Assembly: GCA_021781955.1 (NCBI GenBank)
Contig: JAJXVV010000005.1
Coordinates: forward strand, 1 to 53,246
Source: a bacterium
GTDB lineage: Bacteria; Patescibacteriota; Minisyncoccia; Phycocordibacterales; UBA2100
Direction: 5' to 3'
Length of the DNA stretch: 53,246 nucleotides
The notes under the pieces were generated by a model. That model was not told the origin of the DNA. It did no database searches and worked only from the letters and a program-made list of their open reading frames with translations. Below are positions 1 through 14,059 of this stretch, piece after piece; within the stretch, counting starts at the first letter, position 1, and every line of letters begins with the position of its first letter. A program made the position numbers and the translations under genes.

Positions 1-2446
1 CGGCAAGGTCGGTGGCGAAGCGCGGGTCGAAAAGGCCGTTGAAGGTCGTGGTGTATACGCCGTTGGTGACGGTGCCGGCGTTGCCGGTGATGGAGCCCTG
101 GATGGTGTTGGTGAAGCTGTTCGTGCCGGAGAAGGTGTTGTTGTCTACGAGGAGCGTGGAAGAGGCGGCGGTGATGGTCTGCGCCGTGCCGAGGCCCACC
201 GAGGTGCCGTTGATCGTGACGGTGGAATTCTGCAGCATGGCGTTGGTGATGGCGGAGTTGGCGATGCCGAAGGTGCCTGAGGTGCCGCCGAGGAGAGTGC
301 CGAGGGTGCCGGAGTATGTGAGGACGGAGCCGATCGCGGGGGTGGAGGTGGAGATGCTGGTGAGGGTGTTGGGACCGGAGGCGTATATGACCTGGCCGGT
401 GGTGAGGTTGGTGGAAGTTCCGAGGCCGCTGAAGGTGAAGGCGCCTGTGCTGCTGTTGTACGCGAGCGGGAAGGTCGCGGAGAGGCTGGTGGATGAGACC
501 TTGCTGTTGAAGGTGGTCCAGTCGGAGGATGAGAGGAAGCCGCTTTGGGAACCGTTCGCTTGGTTGATGCCGATGACGCCGCTCGCGTACGTGAGCGGGC
601 TGCCTGAGACCGAGATGGCGTTCTGCGCGCGGGCGGTGGTGAAGTAGAGGTTGGAGCCTTCGGCGAGTGCGGTGGTGGTGGTGGCGGCAAGATTATTCGC
701 GAAGTTCGTGTTCGCGCGGGCGGTGGTGAAATACAAGTGGTTCGTGCCCTCGGCGAGTTGATCGGTGGTCGTGGAGTACCAGGCCGAGAGATCGAGTTTG
801 GCATTGAGCGCGTTCTGAAGATCGGTCTGGTTGGAGAGCATGCCGGTGATGTTCCCCCACACCGCACTCGCGATGCCGAGCGATGAAGTAGACACGAGCG
901 CATACCCGCCGTTGCCGTTGCCGAGGAGGAGCTGGCCGTATGTTGGCGCGGTGGAGGTGCCGACGCCGCCGTAACCGACGGAAAGCGTCGAAGTCGCAGC
1001 GACCACGCCACCATTCGCTTCAAGAAGACCTGTGGACGAGCCGAGCGTGAAATTGCTTGCAAAGAGATTCGTCGTCGTCGCGTTCGTGGTCGTGGAGTAA
1101 CTCGCGGTCAGATCGACGAGCGTCGAGCTCGTTGCAACGATGCTGCCTATGTTGTACGAACCGAACGACGCGGTACCGACGACCGTGAGATTCCCGCCGA
1201 CATTCGCGTTGCCGGAAACGGAGAGCGACGTCGCGCCTACCGACGCGTTGGCGATGGAACCGCCCGTGATGATCGGATTGGCAATGGCCGTATTAGTAAG
1301 CTGATTGATCGCGTTTGTCTGCGCGGTCACCGCATAGTTCTGCGCGATGACCGTGCTCTGACTCGCCGTGAGCGCGTATATCTGCGAGGTCAGTTTATTA
1401 TCGAGCTGGTTGAGGCGCATATCGAGCTCCGCTTCAGTGATACCGCCCGCCTGGGCCAGCTGCTGTGTTTGCGCCTGCTCAACGACCACGCGTTCGATGA
1501 TTTTTTGCTGCGGGCGTGCCGATGGTGCGACCGCTCTCGGAGGCAGCGCGTTCGACGTGGCGACAGAACGAGTGATGGCAGCGCTTGTCGCGCGTGCATA
1601 TGGCTCGATGGAAAGGGACACCGCGCCCGAACGGGTAATCGGGACAACGCTCTGCGAACTTACGAGTGCTTCCGGGAAGGCGATCGCATAAACGAATTCG
1701 TTGATGTTCGTACTGAACGAACGCGCGACACTCTTCGCGAACGCGGCTGCGGCATCGGAGAAATATCCCGGGATCCCCGCTGCGGCGACTTGGGGTCGCG
1801 CCGTAATGGACGCGAGCACATGTTGTTCGTGCGTTTCCGCCGCCAATACCGCACGTGCGAGACCATGCGGCGCCTGCACACCCGCTGCGAGATCGTCTCG
1901 CACTTCGCGCATCGAGTAACTCGCCGCCTTCGGATCAACCGTTGCATACACGCCGAAAATGATCGTCATCGTAAGCGTAAGCGCGATCAACTTCTGACCA
2001 GCCTCTACGAAAGGGGCGCCCGCGCCCTGAGACAACGGGATCAACTGAAGCGCTCTGCTCGGCGCACGAATATCGTCCTGCATTTTTGCGATCAATGCAG
2101 ATGCTCCTTTCTTCAGCGCCTGTTGCGATTCTCCGCGAACCTTTCCAACATGCTGAATGGCAGCCGAGGAGGGAGCGGCAACCAGCGGCTCTCGTGTCGC
2201 CGCTCTATATTCTTCGGCGCGCAATCGCGAGAGCGATTCGCTACGCTTGCTGCGATGATATTCTTGATCTACCAGGAAAGCTTCGATTGAAGATTGTTCC
2301 ACGAACCAATTCTTACCGACCCTTCGGGCGGTTAGCCGACCATCACGGCAAAGGCGCGAAATGTAATCACCGGTGAAGCCTCCAATCATCGCCGCCTCGC
2401 TTGCGGGAATGTACCTCTTTCCTTCAAAAAAAAGCTCGGATGTCAT
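1..2446 (-). CDS. Giant surface protein, truncated by the window edge (>815 aa): N-terminal excisionase-like HTH, one TM helix, Thr/Ser/Gly/Asn-rich beta-type ectodomain with LAEGxNLYFTTARA repeats
   Basis: Hand translation: ATG at 2446, in-frame upstream TAG at 2468-2470, no stop seen in the segments I translated (2446-1982, about 1560-620 and the left end). Begins MTSELFFEGKRYIPASEAAMIGGFTGDYISRLCRDGRLTARRVGKNWFVEQSSIEAFL, has a hydrophobic KLIALTLTMTIIFGVYATV, then PQQKIIERVVVE and T/S-rich repeats. Missing from the ORF track, presumably because its stop lies outside the window. Confidence 0.88.
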   Translation of the reverse strand, partial: MTSELFFEGKRYIPASEAAMIGGFTGDYISRLCRDGRLTARRVGKNWFVEQSSIEAFLVDQEYHRSKRSESLSRLRAEEYRAATREPLVAAPSSAAIQHVGKVRGESQQALKKGASALIAKMQDDIRAPSRALQLIPLSQGAGAPFVEAGQKLIALTLTMTIIFGVYATVDPKAASYSMREVRDDLAAGVQAPHGLARAVLAAETHEQHVLASITARPQVAAAGIPGYFSDAAAAFAKSVARSFSTNINEFVYAIAFPEALVSSQSVVPITRSGAVSLSIEPYARATSAAITRSVATSNALPPRAVAPSARPQQKIIERVVVEQAQTQQLAQAGGITEAELDMRLNQLDNKLTSQIYALTASQSTVIAQNYAVTAQTNAINQLTNTAIANPIITGGSIANASVGATSLSVSGNANVGGNLTVVGTASFGSYNIGSIVATSSTLVDLTASYSTTTNATTTNLFASNFTLGSSTGLLEANGGVVAATSTLSVGYGGVGTSTAPTYGQLLLGNGNGGYALVSTSSLGIASAVWGNITGMLSNQTDLQNALNAKLDLSAWYSTTTDQLAEGTNHLYFTTARANTNFANNLAATTTTALAEGSNLYFTTARAQNAISVSGSPLTYASGVIGINQANGSQSGFLSSSDWTTFNSKVSSTSLSATFPLAYNSSTGAFTFSGLGTSTNLTTGQVIYASGPNTLTSISTSTPAIGSVLTYSGTLGTLLGGTSGTFGIANSAITNAMLQNSTVTINGTSVGLGTAQTITAASSTLLVDNNTFSGTNSFTNTIQGSITGNAGTVTNGVYTTTFNGLFDPRFATDLA

Positions 2447-2883
2447 GTGGTCGGACGCACGACTTATCTAATATTCTACTAGATATTTCGTGTGCAAAGA
2501 CTCGCATACACCTGCGATTGTGTGGATAGTAAAATCTCGATGATTTTTATCCGCTGTCTTGGGATATGCTCGATCAATCTTGTATGGAAACAACGAATCA
2601 GAACGCGTGCGAGGAATCCTCTTCCATGTTCTCTTTACCGACCGTCTAGCATGTTCTTCTACGCGGTTAACGCCAGATGCATTAGACAAGAGCATCCGAC
2701 TGTGCGCGACGATGCGACGGAGGAACTCTATGTGCGTACGGGATAGGTCACTTCTGCACCTAATCTAACCAGATTATCAGCTCTGCAGATAACCGTCCTA
2801 AGTGCGGTATATCCAAGACTCTATACATCTCGCCCGAACGAGATACGCATTTACTGCATATCTCGGCATATATCTACCACGTA

Positions 2884-3840
2884 TTATTGCCGCTCGTAGT
2901 TAAGTTTTGACGTGACCGCACTCTCGACGACATCCCCTACGCTGCCGAATACCGAACTTATATATGCTTCGATGTTGTTCGAGTATACAGGCTGTGTTCG
3001 CGGCAGCAGCACACGGATCGCCACCACGAGTGCGATGACGAGTATGAATATGCCGGCTACCGTGAAATAGGTCGTGTATTGCCGCGATTTTCCTACCTGA
3101 ACGGCACTCCTTTTTCCTGTGCGTTCTGACACCGCATCTTCCGATGTAGCGTAGACATTAACGACCCGAATTGGGGTGGGTCTGGCCCTCCCATCTCCGG
3201 AAGGAGCTTGAGTGGTCCACTTCGTCCCGGGCTGCGCAACGTGAAGCTTTGGCGGTTCATTAACTTCTATATCCTGATGTAGGGGCAACAGATCACCTGT
3301 ATCCTTTGAATACGTGAAGAACGGATCTCTCGAATTGGCGAGGTGCTCATCTTGCACAGATATCCTTGTAGGTGCAGGCGTTTTCTGGATACCGACTGCG
3401 GCAGACTGGACGACAGCAAGTAGCGCGTCTTTTTCCTTTTTATGCGCAAGGATGCCTTCGCGTTCCACGTACCACCGATTGCCGACCTGACGTGACAAAA
3501 TACTGCCAGATCTCGCAAGCTGTCCTACATAATCCTGGTTATATCCGGTTACTTTCGAAGCTCGGGATGCCGAGATGTAGTCCTTGCCGTCAAATGTGAT
3601 GAGTGAATCCGGATCGGCAGAAGGGCCGCGGCTCGGTGGCTCTGGTTTATGCGCTTCGGCAATTTCCTTATACTTCGTTAACGAATCCATCGATACATAC
3701 CAAAGTCCCGACACTCGTCGAGCATCGATCTTCCCGCCCCGAGCTATCTGGCCAATATAATCTTGCGTGTATCCGGTCAATTGCGAGGCTCGCTTAGACG
3801 AGACATATTCTGTCCCATCGAGAGTTACTGCGTCTGTCAT
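2884..3840 (-). CDS. Membrane-anchored protein with two tandem excisionase-like (HTH_17-type) domains and a C-terminal TM helix
   Basis: Two copies of the motif G(T/K)xY(V/I)SxxRASxxTGYxQDY(I/V)GQxARxGxIxxRxVxxxWYV; TM YFTVAGIFILVIALVVAIRVLL near the C-terminus. Start moved to MTDAVTLDG (3840). Confidence 0.85.
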   Translation of the reverse strand: MTDAVTLDGTEYVSSKRASQLTGYTQDYIGQIARGGKIDARRVSGLWYVSMDSLTKYKEIAEAHKPEPPSRGPSADPDSLITFDGKDYISASRASKVTGYNQDYVGQLARSGSILSRQVGNRWYVEREGILAHKKEKDALLAVVQSAAVGIQKTPAPTRISVQDEHLANSRDPFFTYSKDTGDLLPLHQDIEVNEPPKLHVAQPGTKWTTQAPSGDGRARPTPIRVVNVYATSEDAVSERTGKRSAVQVGKSRQYTTYFTVAGIFILVIALVVAIRVLLPRTQPVYSNNIEAYISSVFGSVGDVVESAVTSKLNYERQ

Positions 3841-3932
3841 TAGTAAAGTATATACCGCACGCGCGAAATGCAGTACCCCTGAACTGATGGGCACTGTGGG
3901 TGAGTAACTCTCAGACTCCCTAAAAATGAGAT

Positions 3933-5393
3933 TTATCTGGCGGCCTCCTCTCTGAGCAGATCTCTCATGACCGATGGATTACCTGCGCCTTTGGAAGCCT
4001 TCATGCACTGCCCGAGAAGATATTCAAGGGCTGCTGCTTTACCTGCTTTGTATTCATTCACAACGGCAGCATTGGCCGCTAGAACCCCTTGCACTATGAG
4101 CCTCAAATCTTCGGTTGAACTGACTTGGAACAAACCTTCCTCCGCCGCCAAGCGCTCCGGATCAGCATCCGTAGCGGCCATTTTTGCAAGGAGATCTTTC
4201 GCGGATCTTGATGATATCTTCTTGGCTACTACCATATCGATGAGCGAGGAGAAATTATGCGGCGATATCGATATCTCGGATTGGAAATCCGTGTCTCGGT
4301 TATTGGTATCTCGGCTGTTTTGTGGAGAATCCTTCGCAGCATTCAAGCTGACGAGATCGTTCGTGATGTAATTGCTCGCAACTACTATCTTGGCAGGATC
4401 GGCTCCCCATTTGCTGATGACCGACTCGAAGAATGCGCCGAGCTGATCGTTCCTTACGAAGGCCTCCGCATCCTCCGTCTTCAAACCGAGAGCGAGGTAT
4501 CGAGTACGGCGGTCTTCAGGCAGCTCAGGCATCGATTTACGCAAATCTTCCTGTGAGAACTCGGGTATCTCCGAAAGCTTGAGGCTCGGCAGGTCAGGGT
4601 CAGGGAAGTAGCGGTAATCGGCACTGCCTTCTTTCACGCGCTGCGGGAAGGTCGACTGCTTGCCTTCGTCCCAGCCTCGCGTCTCTTGCGCCACTGTACC
4701 GCAACGCTTGAGCACGTCTGTTTGGCGCTTTATTTCATACTCGACCGCTCGCTCCATCGCCCGGAATGAATTGAGGTTCTTTATCTCGACTTTGGTGCCG
4801 AGAATACCATCTCGGCCGACCGAGACGTTCGCTTCTACACGCATCTCGCCCTTCTCCATGTTCGCATCGGAGGCGCCGAGATATCGAAGGACAAGCTGCA
4901 GTTCTCGGGCAAAATCACCCGCTTGCTTGGCGCTCGTGATGACCGGCTCGGTCACGAGCTCCATGAGCGGTACGCCACCGCGATTAAAATCGATGGTCGT
5001 TCCCTCGCCTTCCGTATGGATCGAGCTTGCCGTGTCCTCCTCGAGATGCACACGCGTAATCGCGACACCCTTGAGCTGACCCTGCGTGACGAGCGGATAT
5101 TCGTACTGGGAGAGCTGGTAGCCCTTTGGTAGGTCAGGATAAAAATAGTTCTTACGATCGAACTCGGTGTAATCGGCTAGCTTGGCATTGAGCGCGATAC
5201 CGACCCGCAGGACGTGCCGTACCGCTTCCCTGTTGATGACGGGCAGCGTTCCTGGGTGCGCCATGCAGACCGGGCAAATGTTCACATTCGGACGCGCCTC
5301 ATCGGGGTCATTCTTCGAGCGGCAGAACATCTTCGTCCGCGTCTTCAGTTCCGCATGGATCTCAAGGCCTATGGTGGGGATGTACTCACTCAC
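3933..5393 (-). CDS. gatB: Asp-tRNA(Asn)/Glu-tRNA(Gln) amidotransferase subunit B
   Basis: IGLEIHAEL, NICPVCMAHPGTLP, FDRKNYFYPDLPKGYQLSQY, VHLEEDTA, DFNRGGVPLMELVTEP, EIKNLNSF, DYRYFPDPDL motifs; GTG start. Confidence 0.97.
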   Translation of the reverse strand: MSEYIPTIGLEIHAELKTRTKMFCRSKNDPDEARPNVNICPVCMAHPGTLPVINREAVRHVLRVGIALNAKLADYTEFDRKNYFYPDLPKGYQLSQYEYPLVTQGQLKGVAITRVHLEEDTASSIHTEGEGTTIDFNRGGVPLMELVTEPVITSAKQAGDFARELQLVLRYLGASDANMEKGEMRVEANVSVGRDGILGTKVEIKNLNSFRAMERAVEYEIKRQTDVLKRCGTVAQETRGWDEGKQSTFPQRVKEGSADYRYFPDPDLPSLKLSEIPEFSQEDLRKSMPELPEDRRTRYLALGLKTEDAEAFVRNDQLGAFFESVISKWGADPAKIVVASNYITNDLVSLNAAKDSPQNSRDTNNRDTDFQSEISISPHNFSSLIDMVVAKKISSRSAKDLLAKMAATDADPERLAAEEGLFQVSSTEDLRLIVQGVLAANAAVVNEYKAGKAAALEYLLGQCMKASKGAGNPSVMRDLLREEAAR

Positions 5394-5397
5394 CCCC

Positions 5398-7968
5398 CTA
5401 CTCTACCACCCGCCACTCCCCGCTCGCAAGCAGCGGCTCGGCCTTCTTATACTTCATTTCCTGCGTCTCCTTTCCGTTGGTGATCGTGACGCGATCATTA
5501 CGACCGAATTCTTTCGAAACCTTGCCCTGATGGTGCGCGGTAATGGTGCGCGCGGCGTTCTCGATCGCGCGCTGCTGCTGGGCAGCGGGAGCGATTCCGA
5601 GATTCGGCATGACCGTGGCGACCTGCGCGACGTACGCCGCCTCCATCAACTGGAAGAGCCGGAGGCCTTCCTTCTTGTATTCGACGAGCGGGTCGCGCTG
5701 GCCGTACGCGCGCAAATTGACCGAGCTGCGCAGGTACTCCATCGCCTCGAGGTGGTCGACCCAGAGATAATCGACGGTCTGCAGGAGGAAGCGGCGCATC
5801 GTGGGGGTGAACGCCTCGCCGAGCTGCGCTTTCTTTTCGGCGATAACGGGCGCGAGCGGGGCGGCGTTCGCCTCTGCCTGCTCGTCACGCTCACTTCCGA
5901 TGCGGGCGAGCTCGTCTTCGATAGCGCTCTCATCGCCGGTGAGGAGCGCCCGGCGACGCGCGTAGATACTCTGACGCTGGATATTGAGCACGTCGTCGTA
6001 CGAGAGCACGTGCTTGCGCGCGTCGAAGTTGATCTCCTCGATGCGGGTCTGCGCTTTTTCGAGCGCGCGGGTGATCATCGGATTGTATATCGGCTCATCC
6101 TCCGGAATCTTGAAGGTGCCCATGACGCGCTTGATGACGTCCGAGGCGAAGATGCGCATCAAGGGATCCTCGAGCGACACGTAGAACTGCGTCTCGCCTG
6201 GATCGCCTTGGCGGCCGGAACGGCCGCGCAGCTGATTGTCGATGCGGCGCGCCTCATGCCGCTCCGTGCCGAGCACGAAGAGGCCGCCTGCGCGCTTCAC
6301 CTCCTCGTACGCCTCGTCGGAACCGGGATTGCCGCCGAGCTTGATGTCGACGCCGCGACCTGCCATGTTGGTCGCGATGGTGACCGCGCCCTTCCGGCCG
6401 GCCTGCGCGATGATCTCGCCCTCGCGTTCGTGGTTCTTCGCGTTGAGTATCTCGTGCGGGATGCCCTCCTGTTTGAAGTGCGCGGAGAGTATCTCGTTCT
6501 TCTCGACCGAAGCGGTGCCCACGAGGACCGGCTGGCCCTTCTCATGGAGCGCTTTGACGGTGCGCGCGATGGCGCGGTACTTCCCTTCCTCGGTCTGGAA
6601 CATGAGGTCGTCGGAATCCTTGCGCTGCGTAGAGCGATTGGTCGGCACCACGACCGTGTTGAGCCCGTAGACCTTGAAGAACTCCTCGGAGCTCGTGAGC
6701 GCGGTACCGGTCATGCCCGCGAGCTTGTCGTAGAGGCGGAAGTAGTTCTGGAACGTGATTGACGCGAACGTGCGGCTCTCCTGCTGGATCGCGACGCCTT
6801 CCTTCGCCTCGATCGCCTGGTGCAGGCCCTCCGACCAGCGCCGGCCCGGCTGCATGCGGCCGGTGAATTCGTCGACGATGACGATCGCGCCGTCGCGCAC
6901 GACGTATTCCTTGTCGCGCTCGAAAAGCGCGCGCGCGCGCACGGCCGTCTCAAGGTGATGAACGTATTTGATGCCCGCGTCGGTGTAGATGTTGTCGAGG
7001 CCGAGCGCCTTCTCCGCTTTCTCGATACCCGCATCGGTCATCGAGATCTGCTTGTGCTTGCGGTCGACGGCGTAGTCCTCCTCGGGCGTGAGCGTGTTCG
7101 CGATCTGCGCGAACGTCACATAGAGCGATCCGGCTTCGGCGACCGGCGCGGAAATAATGAGTGGCGTGCGTGCCTCGTCGATCAAGATAGAGTCGATCTC
7201 GTCGACGATGGCGAAGTGGTACGGGTTGGCGCGCCCGCCGTCCGTCACGCGCTGGCGAAGATTGTGCGCGTCGTACTCGAGATTGTCGCGCAGGTAGTCG
7301 AACCCGAATTCGTTGTTGGTGCCATACGTGATGTCGGCCGCGTAAGCTTCGTGGCGCGTGCATGGCCGCAGCAGCTCGTGCTCGATCTTGAACGCTCCTT
7401 CTTCTTTCTCGCTCTCACGAGCCGCGCCCTCCGAATCCTGCGCGAACGAGGAATCGTAACGGAAAGACGCTTCATGGTTGATGATGCCGACCGTAAGGCC
7501 GAGCGCATCGTACACCTGCCCCATCCACGCGCCGTCACGGCGAGAGAGATAGTCGTTGACGGTGACCACGTGCACGCCCTTGCCGGAGAGCGCGTTCAAG
7601 TACGCCGGGAGCGTCGCGACCAGGGTTTTCCCCTCGCCCGTGCGCATCTCTGCGATATCGCCGCGGTGCAAGATCATGCCGCCCAAAAGCTGCACATCGA
7701 AGTGCCGCTGTCCGAGCGTGCGACGCGATGCTTCGCGCACCGCCGCGAAAGCTTCGGGTGCCAGCTCGTCGATGAGCTTTCGCTCGTCCTTCCCTTCAGC
7801 GAGACCGCCCGCGATACGCCGCTTGAACTCGGCCGTTTTAGCCCGCAGAGCCTCGTCCGAGAGCGCCTGCATGCCCGCCTCGAGAGCGTTCGTCGCCGCC
7901 ACGATAGGCTGCGCCGCCCTGAGCGCAGCGGCATTGTCGTCCCCTTTCAATCTGCTCCACAAGGCCAT
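5398..7968 (-). CDS. secA: Preprotein translocase ATPase SecA
   Basis: IAEMRTGEGKTL, VHVVTVNDYL, YGTNNEFGFDYLRDN, IVDEIDSILIDEARTPLIIS, GRRWSEGLHQAIEAKE, TNMAGRGVDIKLGG, RRIDNQLRGRSGRQGDPG. Confidence 0.98.
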   Translation of the reverse strand: MALWSRLKGDDNAAALRAAQPIVAATNALEAGMQALSDEALRAKTAEFKRRIAGGLAEGKDERKLIDELAPEAFAAVREASRRTLGQRHFDVQLLGGMILHRGDIAEMRTGEGKTLVATLPAYLNALSGKGVHVVTVNDYLSRRDGAWMGQVYDALGLTVGIINHEASFRYDSSFAQDSEGAARESEKEEGAFKIEHELLRPCTRHEAYAADITYGTNNEFGFDYLRDNLEYDAHNLRQRVTDGGRANPYHFAIVDEIDSILIDEARTPLIISAPVAEAGSLYVTFAQIANTLTPEEDYAVDRKHKQISMTDAGIEKAEKALGLDNIYTDAGIKYVHHLETAVRARALFERDKEYVVRDGAIVIVDEFTGRMQPGRRWSEGLHQAIEAKEGVAIQQESRTFASITFQNYFRLYDKLAGMTGTALTSSEEFFKVYGLNTVVVPTNRSTQRKDSDDLMFQTEEGKYRAIARTVKALHEKGQPVLVGTASVEKNEILSAHFKQEGIPHEILNAKNHEREGEIIAQAGRKGAVTIATNMAGRGVDIKLGGNPGSDEAYEEVKRAGGLFVLGTERHEARRIDNQLRGRSGRQGDPGETQFYVSLEDPLMRIFASDVIKRVMGTFKIPEDEPIYNPMITRALEKAQTRIEEINFDARKHVLSYDDVLNIQRQSIYARRRALLTGDESAIEDELARIGSERDEQAEANAAPLAPVIAEKKAQLGEAFTPTMRRFLLQTVDYLWVDHLEAMEYLRSSVNLRAYGQRDPLVEYKKEGLRLFQLMEAAYVAQVATVMPNLGIAPAAQQQRAIENAARTITAHHQGKVSKEFGRNDRVTITNGKETQEMKYKKAEPLLASGEWRVVE

Positions 7969-8141: not shown

Positions 8142-8508
8142 ATCGGGTATGTAGCTTGTGTATTAAATTCGACCCGCACGATTCGCTCGGAGAGCGCGAT
8201 GCGTCTGTTACCGTTTTATTATTGCACTCGCGTGCGCGCATGATTCGAAAAGCGCGTATGCGTGTGGATAACTCGCGCGTGGAATTTTCTAACGATCAAG
8301 AACGAAAAATATCTTTCTTGCGCGTCCGTACTGCGGAGTCCGCATCGATTCGAACGCAAAACGGATCGTGTGCTCGTGTGTGAACGCAAGGCGCAATGCG
8401 GAGGACGGGTGCGAGCTCCAAAGTGAAAGTCTTATGTGAGTGCCGCCGCCCTCCGCGCTGAACCCTGCTGAACAAAGCCTATCACTCTCGCTCGATGTGG
8501 CAAGCCGT

Positions 8509-12428: not shown

Positions 12429-13295
12429 CTATTGTCTCTCACCAATGAGAAAGAAATTGCCCGGAGCGTGTCGGATCGGAACTGATTTCCACGAGAGGCC
12501 AGGTGCCTGAGGACGCAACGTCTTGAAGAATATCTCGTTATCAACGTCTTGAAACTTCGCCTGGTAAGCTATAAGAACGTATTGAGACCCCTTGATCAAG
12601 GGAATCATTTTCTTGCGGACTTCGAGCGGCGACTCACTGAGCGACCATGCTGCCAAAAAAAGATCTGGGTGGGGTACGATTCGACGATCTGTAAAATCTG
12701 AAACAAATTCGATGCTCTCACCTTTGTTCATATGTTCGAGAAAGAATTCCTGAAGCAACAAAAACTCAGGCAAGTCGAAGATTATGTACGTTCCATTGAA
12801 TCCAAGTTGCGAGAAAAGACGCGCGGTGCTGCCGTAGCCTCCCCCGAACTCAAAAACCGTCTTTAGTCGCTGCGTTATACACGTTGTGTTCTGTTCTAAT
12901 GCCCAGAGTGCATATGCGTGATGTATCAAATTACCACTACTCTCGGGCAAGGCCGGGTAACGCTGCGGAAACCCAGCGGGACTTTCCAGTATCGCTTGGC
13001 GCCACATACCCCACGAGGGCGCACTTTGCAGCGCAGCAAGCTCGGCAGGATGACCTGGGTAAAACATCGTATGCTGGATGACTGGCCAACGGAGAAAATA
13101 TCGAGGGTCTTTTGCAGAAACGGAGTTACGAACGGTTTGCCGAAACTCAGTCCACGCTCGTTCTGGCTTCGTTGCAGTCGAAGAGATTGTCAGTGCTGGC
13201 AAAGCGTTCATCTTCTCTCGAAGAGTACGAATTGCCTTTCGTTCGCGCGCAGTAGGAGGATGTACAACTTGATGGAATCGATCGCGCCATCCCAT
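12429..13295 (-). CDS. Putative sugar O-methyltransferase
   Basis: SGNLIHHAY, VFEFGGGYGSTAR, YIIFDLPE, FLAAWSLSE; located in the glycan locus. Confidence 0.7.
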   Translation of the reverse strand: MGWRDRFHQVVHPPTARERKAIRTLREKMNALPALTISSTATKPERAWTEFRQTVRNSVSAKDPRYFLRWPVIQHTMFYPGHPAELAALQSAPSWGMWRQAILESPAGFPQRYPALPESSGNLIHHAYALWALEQNTTCITQRLKTVFEFGGGYGSTARLFSQLGFNGTYIIFDLPEFLLLQEFFLEHMNKGESIEFVSDFTDRRIVPHPDLFLAAWSLSESPLEVRKKMIPLIKGSQYVLIAYQAKFQDVDNEIFFKTLRPQAPGLSWKSVPIRHAPGNFFLIGERQ

Positions 13296-13297
13296 AT

Positions 13298-14059
13298 CTA
13301 CTCAGATTTCTCGAACCGAGCTTTCATGCGCTCTTGCCAAACGGTTCGGTCGACGAAAATGGTATTCAAGTACGTGTCGCCGAAGACGAAGTAGCCGTTC
13401 GCTTCCATGTGCTCCCCTATCTCGGCAATCTTGTGCGAGTGCCCATGCTCATCGTACGAAAGCGTCTCAACACAAAAGATGAGAGGCCGACAACGAGTGA
13501 AGTCGATGCTCTCCAATATTTCAAGGTCGGTGCCCTCGGTATCGAGCGATACCAGGTCGGGCGCCGCGTCAAAATGGTCGCGCACCAAATCCATGAAAGG
13601 TACGACCGGCACTTCGACCTCTTGCGTGATGTGATGTTTGCTTGTCGTGGCGAACACTTCCGCTTGCGGAAGCGATATCGTACTCAAGAGAGGATCGGAG
13701 ACGACATGCAAGACCGCGGTCCCTGCCGTCGACCCAACCGCAACTTCAAGCATCTCATCGCGCGGTCGTTTGCGTTTGAAGACGCTTGCAAGCTTCGGGT
13801 TCGGCTCGACGCACACCCCACGAAACCCCTGTCGATATAAACGATAGGTATTGCTGAGGAATACGGGATCGTTGGCCCCGATGTCGAGGTACGTTGGCCG
13901 TTCGATCGCCAGGTGCCGCAAGACGGAGTGAACGATGAGGTCTTCTCCTGTTTGGGAGTAACTCACTTTCGCGTCGCCGCTCAAGCGGGAAAGCCTCTCG
14001 GTTGCCGTATGGAAGTACATCGGGTACGTGATTGGTTTCAACAGATTCTTCCAATTCAT
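13298..14059 (-). CDS. FkbM-family methyltransferase
   Basis: YSQTGEDL, YLDIGANDP..SNT, GVCVEPNP, LVSLDTEGTDLEIL. Start moved to MNWKNLLKP. Confidence 0.88.
   Translation of the reverse strand: MNWKNLLKPITYPMYFHTATERLSRLSGDAKVSYSQTGEDLIVHSVLRHLAIERPTYLDIGANDPVFLSNTYRLYRQGFRGVCVEPNPKLASVFKRKRPRDEMLEVAVGSTAGTAVLHVVSDPLLSTISLPQAEVFATTSKHHITQEVEVPVVPFMDLVRDHFDAAPDLVSLDTEGTDLEILESIDFTRCRPLIFCVETLSYDEHGHSHKIAEIGEHMEANGYFVFGDTYLNTIFVDRTVWQERMKARFEKSE

Follow-up and report, generated by a model that had tools for sequence, protein, structure and literature searches.

Why would a cell place a domain of DNA-binding type at the cytoplasmic end of a giant surface fibre? The question is raised by two neighbouring, co-oriented genes, here called A and B, near one end of a 53-kb stretch of patescibacterial DNA (contig JAJXVV010000005.1 of GenBank assembly GCA_021781955.1). 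This stretch, the window, is the whole of contig C11 of a 741-kb genome in 12 contigs. The genome is present in mine-drainage samples, for which the sequencing runs found were of DNA only. A preliminary description of the window proposed that a helix-turn-helix (HTH) motif of excisionase type occurs once in A and twice in B, that each protein has one transmembrane (TM) helix, C-terminal in B, and that A continues beyond the membrane as an adhesin-like chain of more than 600 residues. The answer that we favour, with belief and doubt evenly balanced, is that A and B work as paired transmembrane transcription regulators, whose winged helices bind candidate operators in the gap between the two genes and set the transcription of the fibre gene from the membrane.

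One domain in two membrane proteins

The two proteins share a paralogous domain of ~60 residues, one copy in A and two in B, and these copies are the only three in the genome. When residues 1–150 of A were compared by phmmer with all six-frame open reading frames (ORFs) of the genome, B alone was matched, twice (i-E 4.8e-08 and 8e-10), and the reverse search with B as the query matched A at 7.2e-09. No fourth copy was found by phmmer in the six-frame ORFs of the 741-kb genome. This bears out the repeated motif of the preliminary description. The two proposed TM helices also stand, as hydropathy analysis finds one strongly hydrophobic segment apiece in A and B.

All three copies are predicted by AlphaFold2 (AF2), with predicted local distance difference test (pLDDT) values above 94, to form an HTH with a β-hairpin wing, i.e. 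a winged helix of the excisionase/BldC/TraN type. The model of B (40-sequence alignment) consists of two such domains, each with the order strand-strand-helix-helix-strand-strand-helix, a low-confidence linker of 110 residues, the TM helix and a short outer helix. In the model of A residues 1–330 (18 sequences), the same domain (pLDDT of at least 96) continues into a long helix that ends at residue 84, and a disordered linker connects this helix to the TM helix. The Foldseek matches of A in the PDB are BldC (TM-score 0.79, root-mean-square deviation (rmsd) 1.3 Å), Pukovnik Xis (0.71–0.73, 1.5 Å), TraN and RacA. For the whole B model, TraN comes top (E 1.5e-3, probability 0.99, both domains aligned), with Xis, RdfS, GlnR, RacA and BldC behind it. 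The domain-level matches to Xis, BldC, RdfS and TraN have an rmsd of 1.3–2 Å and TM-scores of 0.7–0.8, and the best PDB matches of both models are all DNA-binding winged helices. The E-values are modest because a domain of ~50 residues sits in models of 318–330 residues, while the probabilities and TM-scores are high. A 39-sequence profile of the domain had TraN as its sole, weak match among PDB sequences (E 0.03).

Family membership points the same way. An orthologue of A (locus L023) matches Pfam HTH_17 (PF12728) with 38.4 bits, above the cut-off, and most of the 120 proteins listed among the 781 homologues of B, which bear the source name Candidatus Kaiserbacteria, carry a precomputed PF12728 assignment. 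This source name and the 741-kb genome bear out the assignment to Patescibacteria in the preliminary description. Both the A and the B alignments retain the canonical HTH_17 wing motif G(K/R)xW, and the recognition helix of B (QDY[IV]GQLAR.G) is extremely conserved among its orthologues. The PHROG matches of the window proteins are excisionases and recombination directionality factors; for TIGR01764 they score 16 against a cut-off of 28.8. Taken together, the predicted fold and the family membership of orthologues support the assignment of the domains to the excisionase/HTH_17-type winged helices, the type named in the preliminary description. The Pfam scan returned only HTH_17-type matches and no ToxR-like domain of the OmpR/PhoB type (Trans_reg_C), and the structural neighbours are of the Xis/MerR type. 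Neither HTH_25 (PF13413) nor RodZ_C (PF13464) was matched anywhere in the genome.

The frame of gene A, which opens with the ATG at 2446, is free of stop codons for 815 codons and leaves the window through the contig end, as had been proposed. The full-length gene encodes 1,887 residues and was found, by means of the exact B sequence, in the near-identical assembly GCA_027352215.1 (locus L043). Residues 1–815 of the window are 100% identical to this copy, and its residues 939–1887 are 100% identical to a 5′-open ORF at the left end of contig C1 (3..2849, plus strand); ~123 codons are absent between the left ends of C11 and C1. The assembly broke inside the gene because of an internal repeat of ~100 residues (568–668 vs 794–896).

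Within the window, 644 residues of A follow the TM helix, and residues 401–815 contain 18% T, 14% S, 12% G and 9% N, in agreement with the T/S-rich surface sequence first described. In the full-length protein T, S, G and N make up 42–66% of the shaft, which carries five GN[LV]GIGT repeats. Outside the window, on contig C1 and in the L043 copy, Pfam identifies a Peptidase_S74 domain (residues 1553–1618, 34.7 bits against a cut-off of 22) and a Bact_surface_Ig-like domain (residues 1768–1848). SDERLK, the Ser-x4-Lys motif that marks S74 domains as self-cleaving chaperones, is intact, with S1553 aligned to position 1 of the profile, and A is thus given a predicted self-cleavage site. Since Peptidase_S74 is an intramolecular-chaperone domain and its Ser-Lys motif is intact, the fibre probably forms a trimer. 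The ectodomain has four cysteines in two close pairs, and paired cysteines occur solely there. The TM region keeps the motif LTFGTYA.VDP in orthologues. On sequence grounds, A is predicted to be a type-II anchored giant surface fibre of tail-fibre-like character: the giant surface fibre of the preliminary description stands, and its generic adhesin gives way to the more specific tail-fibre-like protein with Peptidase_S74. We infer an N-in topology, with the HTH in the cytoplasm as first proposed, because there is no signal peptide before the folded, basic domain of 84 residues, the TM helix is single, and domains of extracellular type occur only in the C-terminal part.

Other fibre genes are present in the same genome. 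The left end of contig C4 (C4:2-1204) encodes a paralogous fibre with a plain signal anchor and without the HTH, which shares with A the repeat TLNGTSVGLGT.QTI.AASSTLL.DNNTFSGTNSFT. The left end of contig C2 (C2:1-2724) holds another fibre C-terminus with an Ig-like domain and no S74 match. Two more surface-protein genes (C9:174468-176606 and C5:2-1432) have identical sequence at contig ends (...FTFANINLDASQSGEDIRLSSLPITATVANQISTTPDLTN), and it is this repeat, shared by the two genes, that accounts for the C9/C5 assembly break.

Gene B lies in an ORF at 2884..3894, a frame of 336 residues. Its start was set at the ATG at 3840 by the orthologue alignment and the called protein P0001 (318 residues), and the TM segment at ~275–297 in the numbering of the longer frame is segment 258–278 of the 318-residue protein. 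A polypeptide that has both a recognised DNA-binding domain and one or more TM regions counts as a transmembrane transcription regulator (PMC10269533); A, B and their orthologues all combine a predicted winged HTH with a single hydrophobic helix. The coordinates of both genes, their parts and their surroundings are collected in the table.

Table. Features of the A–B locus, with window coordinates and basis of assignment
Feature	Position	Strand	Basis or remark
secA	5398-7968	-	gene order, upstream of gatB
gatB	3933-5393	-	between secA and gene B
Gene B (318 residues; two winged HTH, long linker, TM helix, short outer tail)	2884..3840	-	ORF, alignment, AF2
B residues 4-63: first winged HTH	3652..3831	-	AF2 pLDDT 94-97
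B residues 81-149: second winged HTH and conserved helix (HKKEKDALLAVVQ)	3394..3600	-	AF2 pLDDT 94-97
B residues 258-278: TM helix	3007..3069	-	hydropathy up to 3.0; AF2 helix
B residues 279-318: extracytoplasmic tail, conserved GD.LE..lvpEL.Y.R	2887..3006	-	alignment; AF2 helix 290-310
Perfect palindrome ATCTCGTTCGGGCGAGAT (ATMTCG-N6-CGAKAT type; ATCTCG-N6-CGAGAT)	2827..2844	.	40 nt past B stop; candidate operator or B terminator hairpin
CTATCCACA, DnaA-box-like	2521..2529	-	28 nt upstream of A-proximal element; aligned in 16/18 loci, spacing constant at 28-29 nt
A-proximal element: CACGAAATATCTAGTAGAATATTAGATAAGTCG including -10-like TAGAAT, then TCGTGCGTCCGA (TCG-N6-CGA)	2451..2492	-	conserved in 18 genus loci; ends 4 nt before ATG
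Gene A, 5′ part (codons 1-815 of 1,887)	2..2446	-	open frame cut by contig end
A residues 1-84: winged HTH (strand-strand-helix-helix-strand-strand) and long basic helix 51-84; predicted cytoplasmic	2195..2446	-	AF2 pLDDT at least 96, Foldseek
A residues 85-144: variable low-confidence linker from HTH to membrane	2015..2194	-	pLDDT 40-55; unconserved in orthologue alignment
A residues 145-171: single TM helix, signal anchor, predicted N-terminus inside	1934..2014	-	hydropathy peak 152-171; AF2 helix 145-170
A residues 172-385: extracytoplasmic juxtamembrane region and coiled-coil-like neck (ITEAELDMRLNQLDNKLTSQIYAL...)	1292..1933	-	sequence, orthologue alignment
A residues 386-815: T/S/G/N-rich fibre shaft with internal repeats	2..1291	-	composition

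DNA elements between B and A

Read along the minus strand, the locus comprises secA, gatB, gene B, a gap of 437 nt with lower GC, and gene A; apart from this dip, GC at the locus is unremarkable. The preliminary description had singled out the intergenic DNA (2447–2883), where there are indeed two conserved elements that occur nowhere else in the genome. One of them is the palindrome downstream of B. Its pattern, ATMTCG-N6-CGAKAT, has exactly one match in the 741-kb genome, the one in the B–A gap. A gap copy with 0–1 mismatch is found in 13 of 18 genus loci, in eight of them perfect, and it is the arms that are conserved while the spacers vary. In other families, HTH-giant genes have a palindrome ATATCGGATA(A/G)CCGATAT placed after the −10 box and ahead of the start codon; six of the eight genome-wide matches (at most one mismatch) in six such genomes abut an HTH-giant gene, and the controls had none. 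A stricter 14-base version found 15 sites in a phylum sample, against one in the control. Seven of these abut HTH-TM genes; two of the seven lie ~60 nt upstream of genes for two-HTH proteins with a TM helix, in genomes that had given no match in the earlier HTH search. Genus-wide, 43 palindromes were found against eight in the reversed control, 15 of them at HTH loci. The palindrome was rejected as an exclusive marker of HTH genes, as it also occurs elsewhere, at 28 of the 43 sites in the genus and at eight of the 15 strict sites in the phylum, and some of these sites resemble ordinary terminators. The palindrome of the window has no T-run after it and was not called in a terminator scan. A role purely in RNA structure is disfavoured because the arm sequences are conserved and the T-run is missing.

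Several further observations concern the palindrome and its variants. An 11-bp inverted repeat at 2839–2865 (CGAGATACGCA / TGCATATCTCG, 5-nt loop) overlaps its left arm and adds a third CGAGAT/ATCTCG half-site at 2861–2866. Inside gene B, the codons for I-S-A-S-R-A (ATCTCGGCATCCCGAGCT; 3559–3576) resemble the palindrome with one mismatch, as they do in several orthologues, which is probably a coding coincidence. In three relatives (L044, G004:C2; L045, G011:C17; L050, G001:C14), ATCTCGG-N4-CCGAGAT occupies the divergent gap between a ClpB/ClpC-like gene and a gene for a membrane protein of ~270 residues. This arrangement is absent from the genome of the window; the two genes may be further members of a regulon. 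In two others (L047, G036:C2; L048, G035:C4), the palindrome lies ~100 nt past the stop codon of an orthologous gene of ~430 residues with the C-terminus ...LNPxDYL.

The second element immediately precedes gene A. Its 33-nt part CACGAAATATCTAGTAGAATATTAGATAAGTCG, window positions 2460–2492 on the minus strand, is directly upstream of the A ATG and holds two CTAG/TAG repeats spaced 10–11 bp apart. The alignment of 18 genus loci reads CCGAAATAnCTAGTAAAAT(n)nTAGATAAgTCG. Its core, CTAGTANAATN{1,3}TAGNTAA, is found in 13 of 41 genus genomes, a single time in each and without exception at the 5′ end of A; the reversed control had none. Several relatives keep ATATCGG...CCGA at the position of the TCG-N6-CGA part of the element. 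In two loci (L003 and L006, genomes G020 and G026), ~500 nt rich in short CGAATG/ATTCG repeats separate the element from the A start codon. The idea of an RNA leader was dropped: RNAalifold on 14 leaders predicted zero pairs, and a gathering-level Rfam scan was empty there.

The DnaA-box-like sequence upstream of the proximal element is a copy of the consensus TTATCCACA, of which the 741-kb genome has 20 perfect copies against ~4 expected, nearly all intergenic or on the promoter side. The window contains two of them, at 8263–8271 and 2521–2529, both on the minus strand. With 20 perfect copies genome-wide, the box is not specific to A; it could be the site of a global regulator or a promoter element. 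Six copies sit in a longer repeat, TTATCCACAGATTTGTACAGAGGACCGTCCTCTGG, on contigs C6, C9 and C10. An origin of replication upstream of A was ruled out: the 20 copies are scattered over promoter regions, one of them is in the B–A gap, and dnaA is on a different contig. A sigma-70 promoter and terminator scan of 2300–4100, which is uninformative for this organism, found zero promoters and zero terminators in the gap.

Recurrence in the phylum and known relatives

The arrangement is not peculiar to one genome. In 22 of 24 other genus genomes with a B orthologue (E<1e-50), an A-type match is found 0.3–1.5 kb downstream on the same strand, and the order secA-gatB-B-A is present in all five loci that were read further. 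In every genus locus read, B has two HTH domains and a TM helix and A has one HTH domain and a TM helix, with A orthologues of 1,272 to 4,053 residues in five loci. One relative (L028, G012:C18:3-10616, minus strand) has, besides the B–A pair, a second HTH-TM giant of more than 3,538 residues divergent from gatB. Elsewhere in the order, in which 14 of 25 genera have any match, giants of 2,603 and 6,630 residues begin with one or two copies of the domain, and one of them also has S74.

A search of protein sequences with residues 1–90 of full-length A yielded three proteins, and the distribution was taken from whole-genome searches and a library of cluster representatives. In an even sample of 401 Patescibacteria genomes, the domain is found in 37 (E≤1e-5), with 14 matched frames of at least 900 residues. 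All 13 phylum-wide giants that were fetched show the succession of HTH, one TM helix and a long ORF, a layout that recurs across families of Patescibacteria. The paralogous pair that had been proposed is upheld: it is conserved in the genus, and its layout is met again in the phylum. The domain profile, compared with 1.84 billion cluster representatives, matched 14,849 proteins at E≤1e-3 and 7,357 at E≤1e-10. Nearly all of the best 150 representatives have two domains, two have three, and most are B-like proteins of ~300–350 residues.

The broad class to which A and B would belong is already recognised: transmembrane transcription regulators are widespread, mostly single-pass and employ more than 100 kinds of DNA-binding domain (PMC10269533). 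ToxR, TcpP, CadC and PsaE are built like A and B, with the DNA-binding domain at the cytoplasmic N-terminus, one TM helix and a C-terminal part that is extracytoplasmic, and they are thought to act on promoters from the membrane (PMC10269533). However, the DNA-binding domain of ToxR-like regulators is of the OmpR/PhoB type, whereas that of A and B is of the Xis/MerR/BldC type and its binding to DNA is predicted. Known membrane regulators carry a compact sensor outside; A has a tail-fibre-like part of ~1,700 residues with S74, and B a tail of 40 residues. Unlike the ToxR-like examples, A and B come as a pair with three HTH domains.

By fold and sequence profile, the closest solved relative is TraN (PDB ids 4P0Z, 4PM3, 6G1T), which has two tandem winged helices, like B. 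In TraN of pIP501, the tandem winged helix spans two adjacent major grooves of an 18-bp operator with two half-sites and represses promoters, one of them ahead of its own gene (PMC6158623). Unlike TraN, which is small, soluble and cytosolic and forms a compact internal dimer, B is tethered to the membrane and its two domains, joined by a flexible linker of 17 residues, are not packed against each other in the model. BldC of Streptomyces, Pukovnik Xis and RdfS share the minimal winged-helix fold of A and B (TM-score 0.7–0.8, rmsd 1.3–1.6 Å) but are stand-alone proteins of ~55–70 residues without a TM helix or an ectodomain. BldC and Xis-type proteins bind short repeats cooperatively; short repeats of the CTAG type, spaced 10–11 bp apart, are also present, twice, in the element proximal to A.

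To our knowledge, MYRF, the eukaryotic myelin regulatory factor, is the only named protein in which a phage-type Peptidase_S74 domain occurs together with a type-II anchor and a DNA-binding domain. Its S74-driven trimerisation governs DNA binding (PMC3742443, PMC3742440). MYRF has the order DNA-binding domain, S74, TM helix, and cleavage frees the DNA-binding domain, which is of the Ndt80 type. The order in A is different, HTH (1–58), TM helix (145–171), fibre, S74 (1553–1618), and its DNA-binding-type domain is Xis/BldC-like. The HTH of A cannot be freed by cleavage at the S74 domain, which lies outside the cell at a distance of ~1,400 residues from the membrane; as judged from the domain order, such cleavage would remove the C-terminal 335 residues, with the HTH staying where it is. 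A shares with phage tail fibres and endosialidases the S74 domain with Ser-x4-Lys, the G-N-[LV]-G-I-G-T repeats and the T/S/G/N-rich shaft. The A fibre differs from them in being chromosomal, in its N-terminal TM anchor with a cytoplasmic HTH and in the ~270 residues, including an Ig-like domain, that follow S74. RodZ, like B and A, is bitopic and begins with a cytoplasmic HTH that a linker joins to a TM helix, but its HTH is of the Xre type and binds MreB, and it has a RodZ_C domain; none of these features was found in A or B.

The literature searched on HTH_17/excisionase TM proteins in Patescibacteria or the candidate phyla radiation (CPR), on giant surface proteins of Parcubacteria and on S74 in Patescibacteria contained no description of an HTH-TM-giant fibre layout. 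The view that no named system has this layout thus holds for the particular design, the giant tail-fibre fusion with its tandem-HTH partner and candidate operators, which was found to be undescribed in the literature searched; it does not hold for the broad class. The CPR Pam pilus was considered and set aside as unrelated, being an Ig-fold donor-strand pilus (PMC13278184).

Proposed regulation from the membrane and its alternatives

In the favoured reading, A and B would be single-pass membrane proteins whose cytoplasmic N-terminal winged helices, of the excisionase/BldC/TraN type, bind the ATCTCG-N6-CGAGAT palindrome and the element that overlaps the −10 box and start site of A. By such binding they would control, from the membrane, how strongly the giant fibre gene is transcribed. 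The likeliest mode would be autorepression, or a feedback on the number of fibres or their state of assembly. Autorepression is the simplest choice because the palindrome of the other families, between the −10 box and the start codon, is in the position of a repressor site. The long disordered linkers (60–110 residues) would allow the domains to span the distance to the nucleoid, given how small the cell is.

A number of points weigh against this. The HTH_17 scores of the window proteins themselves, 16.4 bits for A and 23.5 for the second domain of B, fall short of the cut-off of 27, and DNA binding by the domains of A and B is a prediction from the fold and the locus-specific motifs. When the two domains of B are superposed on TraN together, the rmsd is 21 Å, with the linker between them (residues 64–80) of low confidence. 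In the genus, the perfect palindrome lies 25–150 nt past the B stop codon and 180–740 nt from the A start, a position that also fits a terminator. The majority of the genus sites (28 of 43) are away from HTH loci, several matches to the pattern in AT-rich relatives resemble ordinary bidirectional terminators, and the TCG-N6-CGA at 2451–2462 in the window is a weak copy of the palindrome. Lastly, a stable fibre that is permanently anchored in the membrane makes simple autorepression hard to reverse.

The fibre might itself sense its own state or contact, a possibility that we regard as doubtful. S74-assisted folding and trimerisation of the ectodomain, or the load of host contact, would alter the clustering of the three N-terminal winged helices of the trimer, and B, with its tandem helices and outer tail, would be a co-sensor or a competitor at the same palindromes. 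The surface would then be wired to its own gene, and perhaps to a small regulon, without a second messenger; the sites near the ClpB/ClpC-like gene in relatives hint at such a regulon. The evidence from fold and cis elements also speaks for a DNA tether, in which the winged helices bind DNA at their own locus or more widely and thereby fasten the giant gene or the chromosome to the membrane, as RacA or Noc would, either for coupled transcription, translation and insertion of the 5.7-kb gene or for keeping the nucleoid in place beneath the fibre. The structural matches include RacA, the ribosome releases the HTH before any other part of A, secA is two genes upstream, and the distal palindrome of the genus suits an anchoring site better than a classical operator. 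Yet the palindrome of the other families sits exactly at the repressor position, one or two sites per locus were found rather than a centromere-like array, and any polar localisation would be conjecture. We consider a tether unlikely. Docking on a protein has a slightly smaller chance again. The HTH of B, and perhaps that of A, would here bind MreB or another cytoplasmic partner, and not DNA, in the manner of RodZ and position envelope or fibre assembly. B is RodZ-like in size and order (HTH, linker, TM helix, short outer part), the genome has two MreB paralogues (C6:5528-6505 and 13086-14057) and no match to RodZ_C or HTH_25, A is followed downstream by murG, and the extreme conservation of the recognition helix would also suit a conserved protein partner. 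However, the HTH of RodZ is Xre-type and not Xis/MerR-type, all close structural relatives bind DNA, the HTH_17 wing motif is kept, and B is missing from many relatives that have MreB (14 of 25 genera of the order have any match). Docking also leaves unexplained the locus-specific DNA motifs that travel with the genes across families.

It is improbable that the HTH merely fixes the N-in topology of the fibre anchor, the palindrome being a terminator hairpin of B and the proximal element a promoter of A. The palindrome does follow the B stop codon in the genus, similar hairpins serve as terminators elsewhere, and the palindrome could be the B terminator; moreover, the HTH must be dispensable for fibre display, since the paralogous fibre at the C4 end has a plain signal anchor and no HTH. 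Against this, the arms keep their sequence while the B proteins are ~45% identical and the spacer drifts, the opposite of what RNA pairing alone would produce; the T-run and a call by the terminator scan are missing; palindromes of this type lie upstream of HTH genes, past the −10 box, in other families; and a mere stopper would not stay near-invariant across thousands of proteins. The least credible reading, to which we give hardly any weight, is the remnant of a prophage or mobile element with an excisionase gene and a tail-fibre gene. The PHROG matches and the S74 domain of tail-fibre type would fit it, but no integrase was found nearby, the HTH is fused in frame to the TM helix and fibre, and GC is not anomalous beyond the intergenic dip. 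The locus is in a stable core context, with secA and gatB upstream across the genus and, in the species of the window (L043 locus), a rhodanese gene and murG downstream, and on this conserved core synteny a prophage or mobile-element origin was rejected.

A large part of bacterial diversity belongs to Patescibacteria, which spend their lives attached to other cells and have very few recognisable regulators and many giant surface proteins. In a family of thousands of proteins (7,357 cluster representatives at E≤1e-10), a predicted DNA-binding head is set on the membrane anchor of such fibres, with matching DNA motifs at the genes. If regulation from the membrane is the correct reading, A and B would represent a very short signalling path from the cell surface to the gene and would provide a handle on the control of the host-contact apparatus in Patescibacteria.

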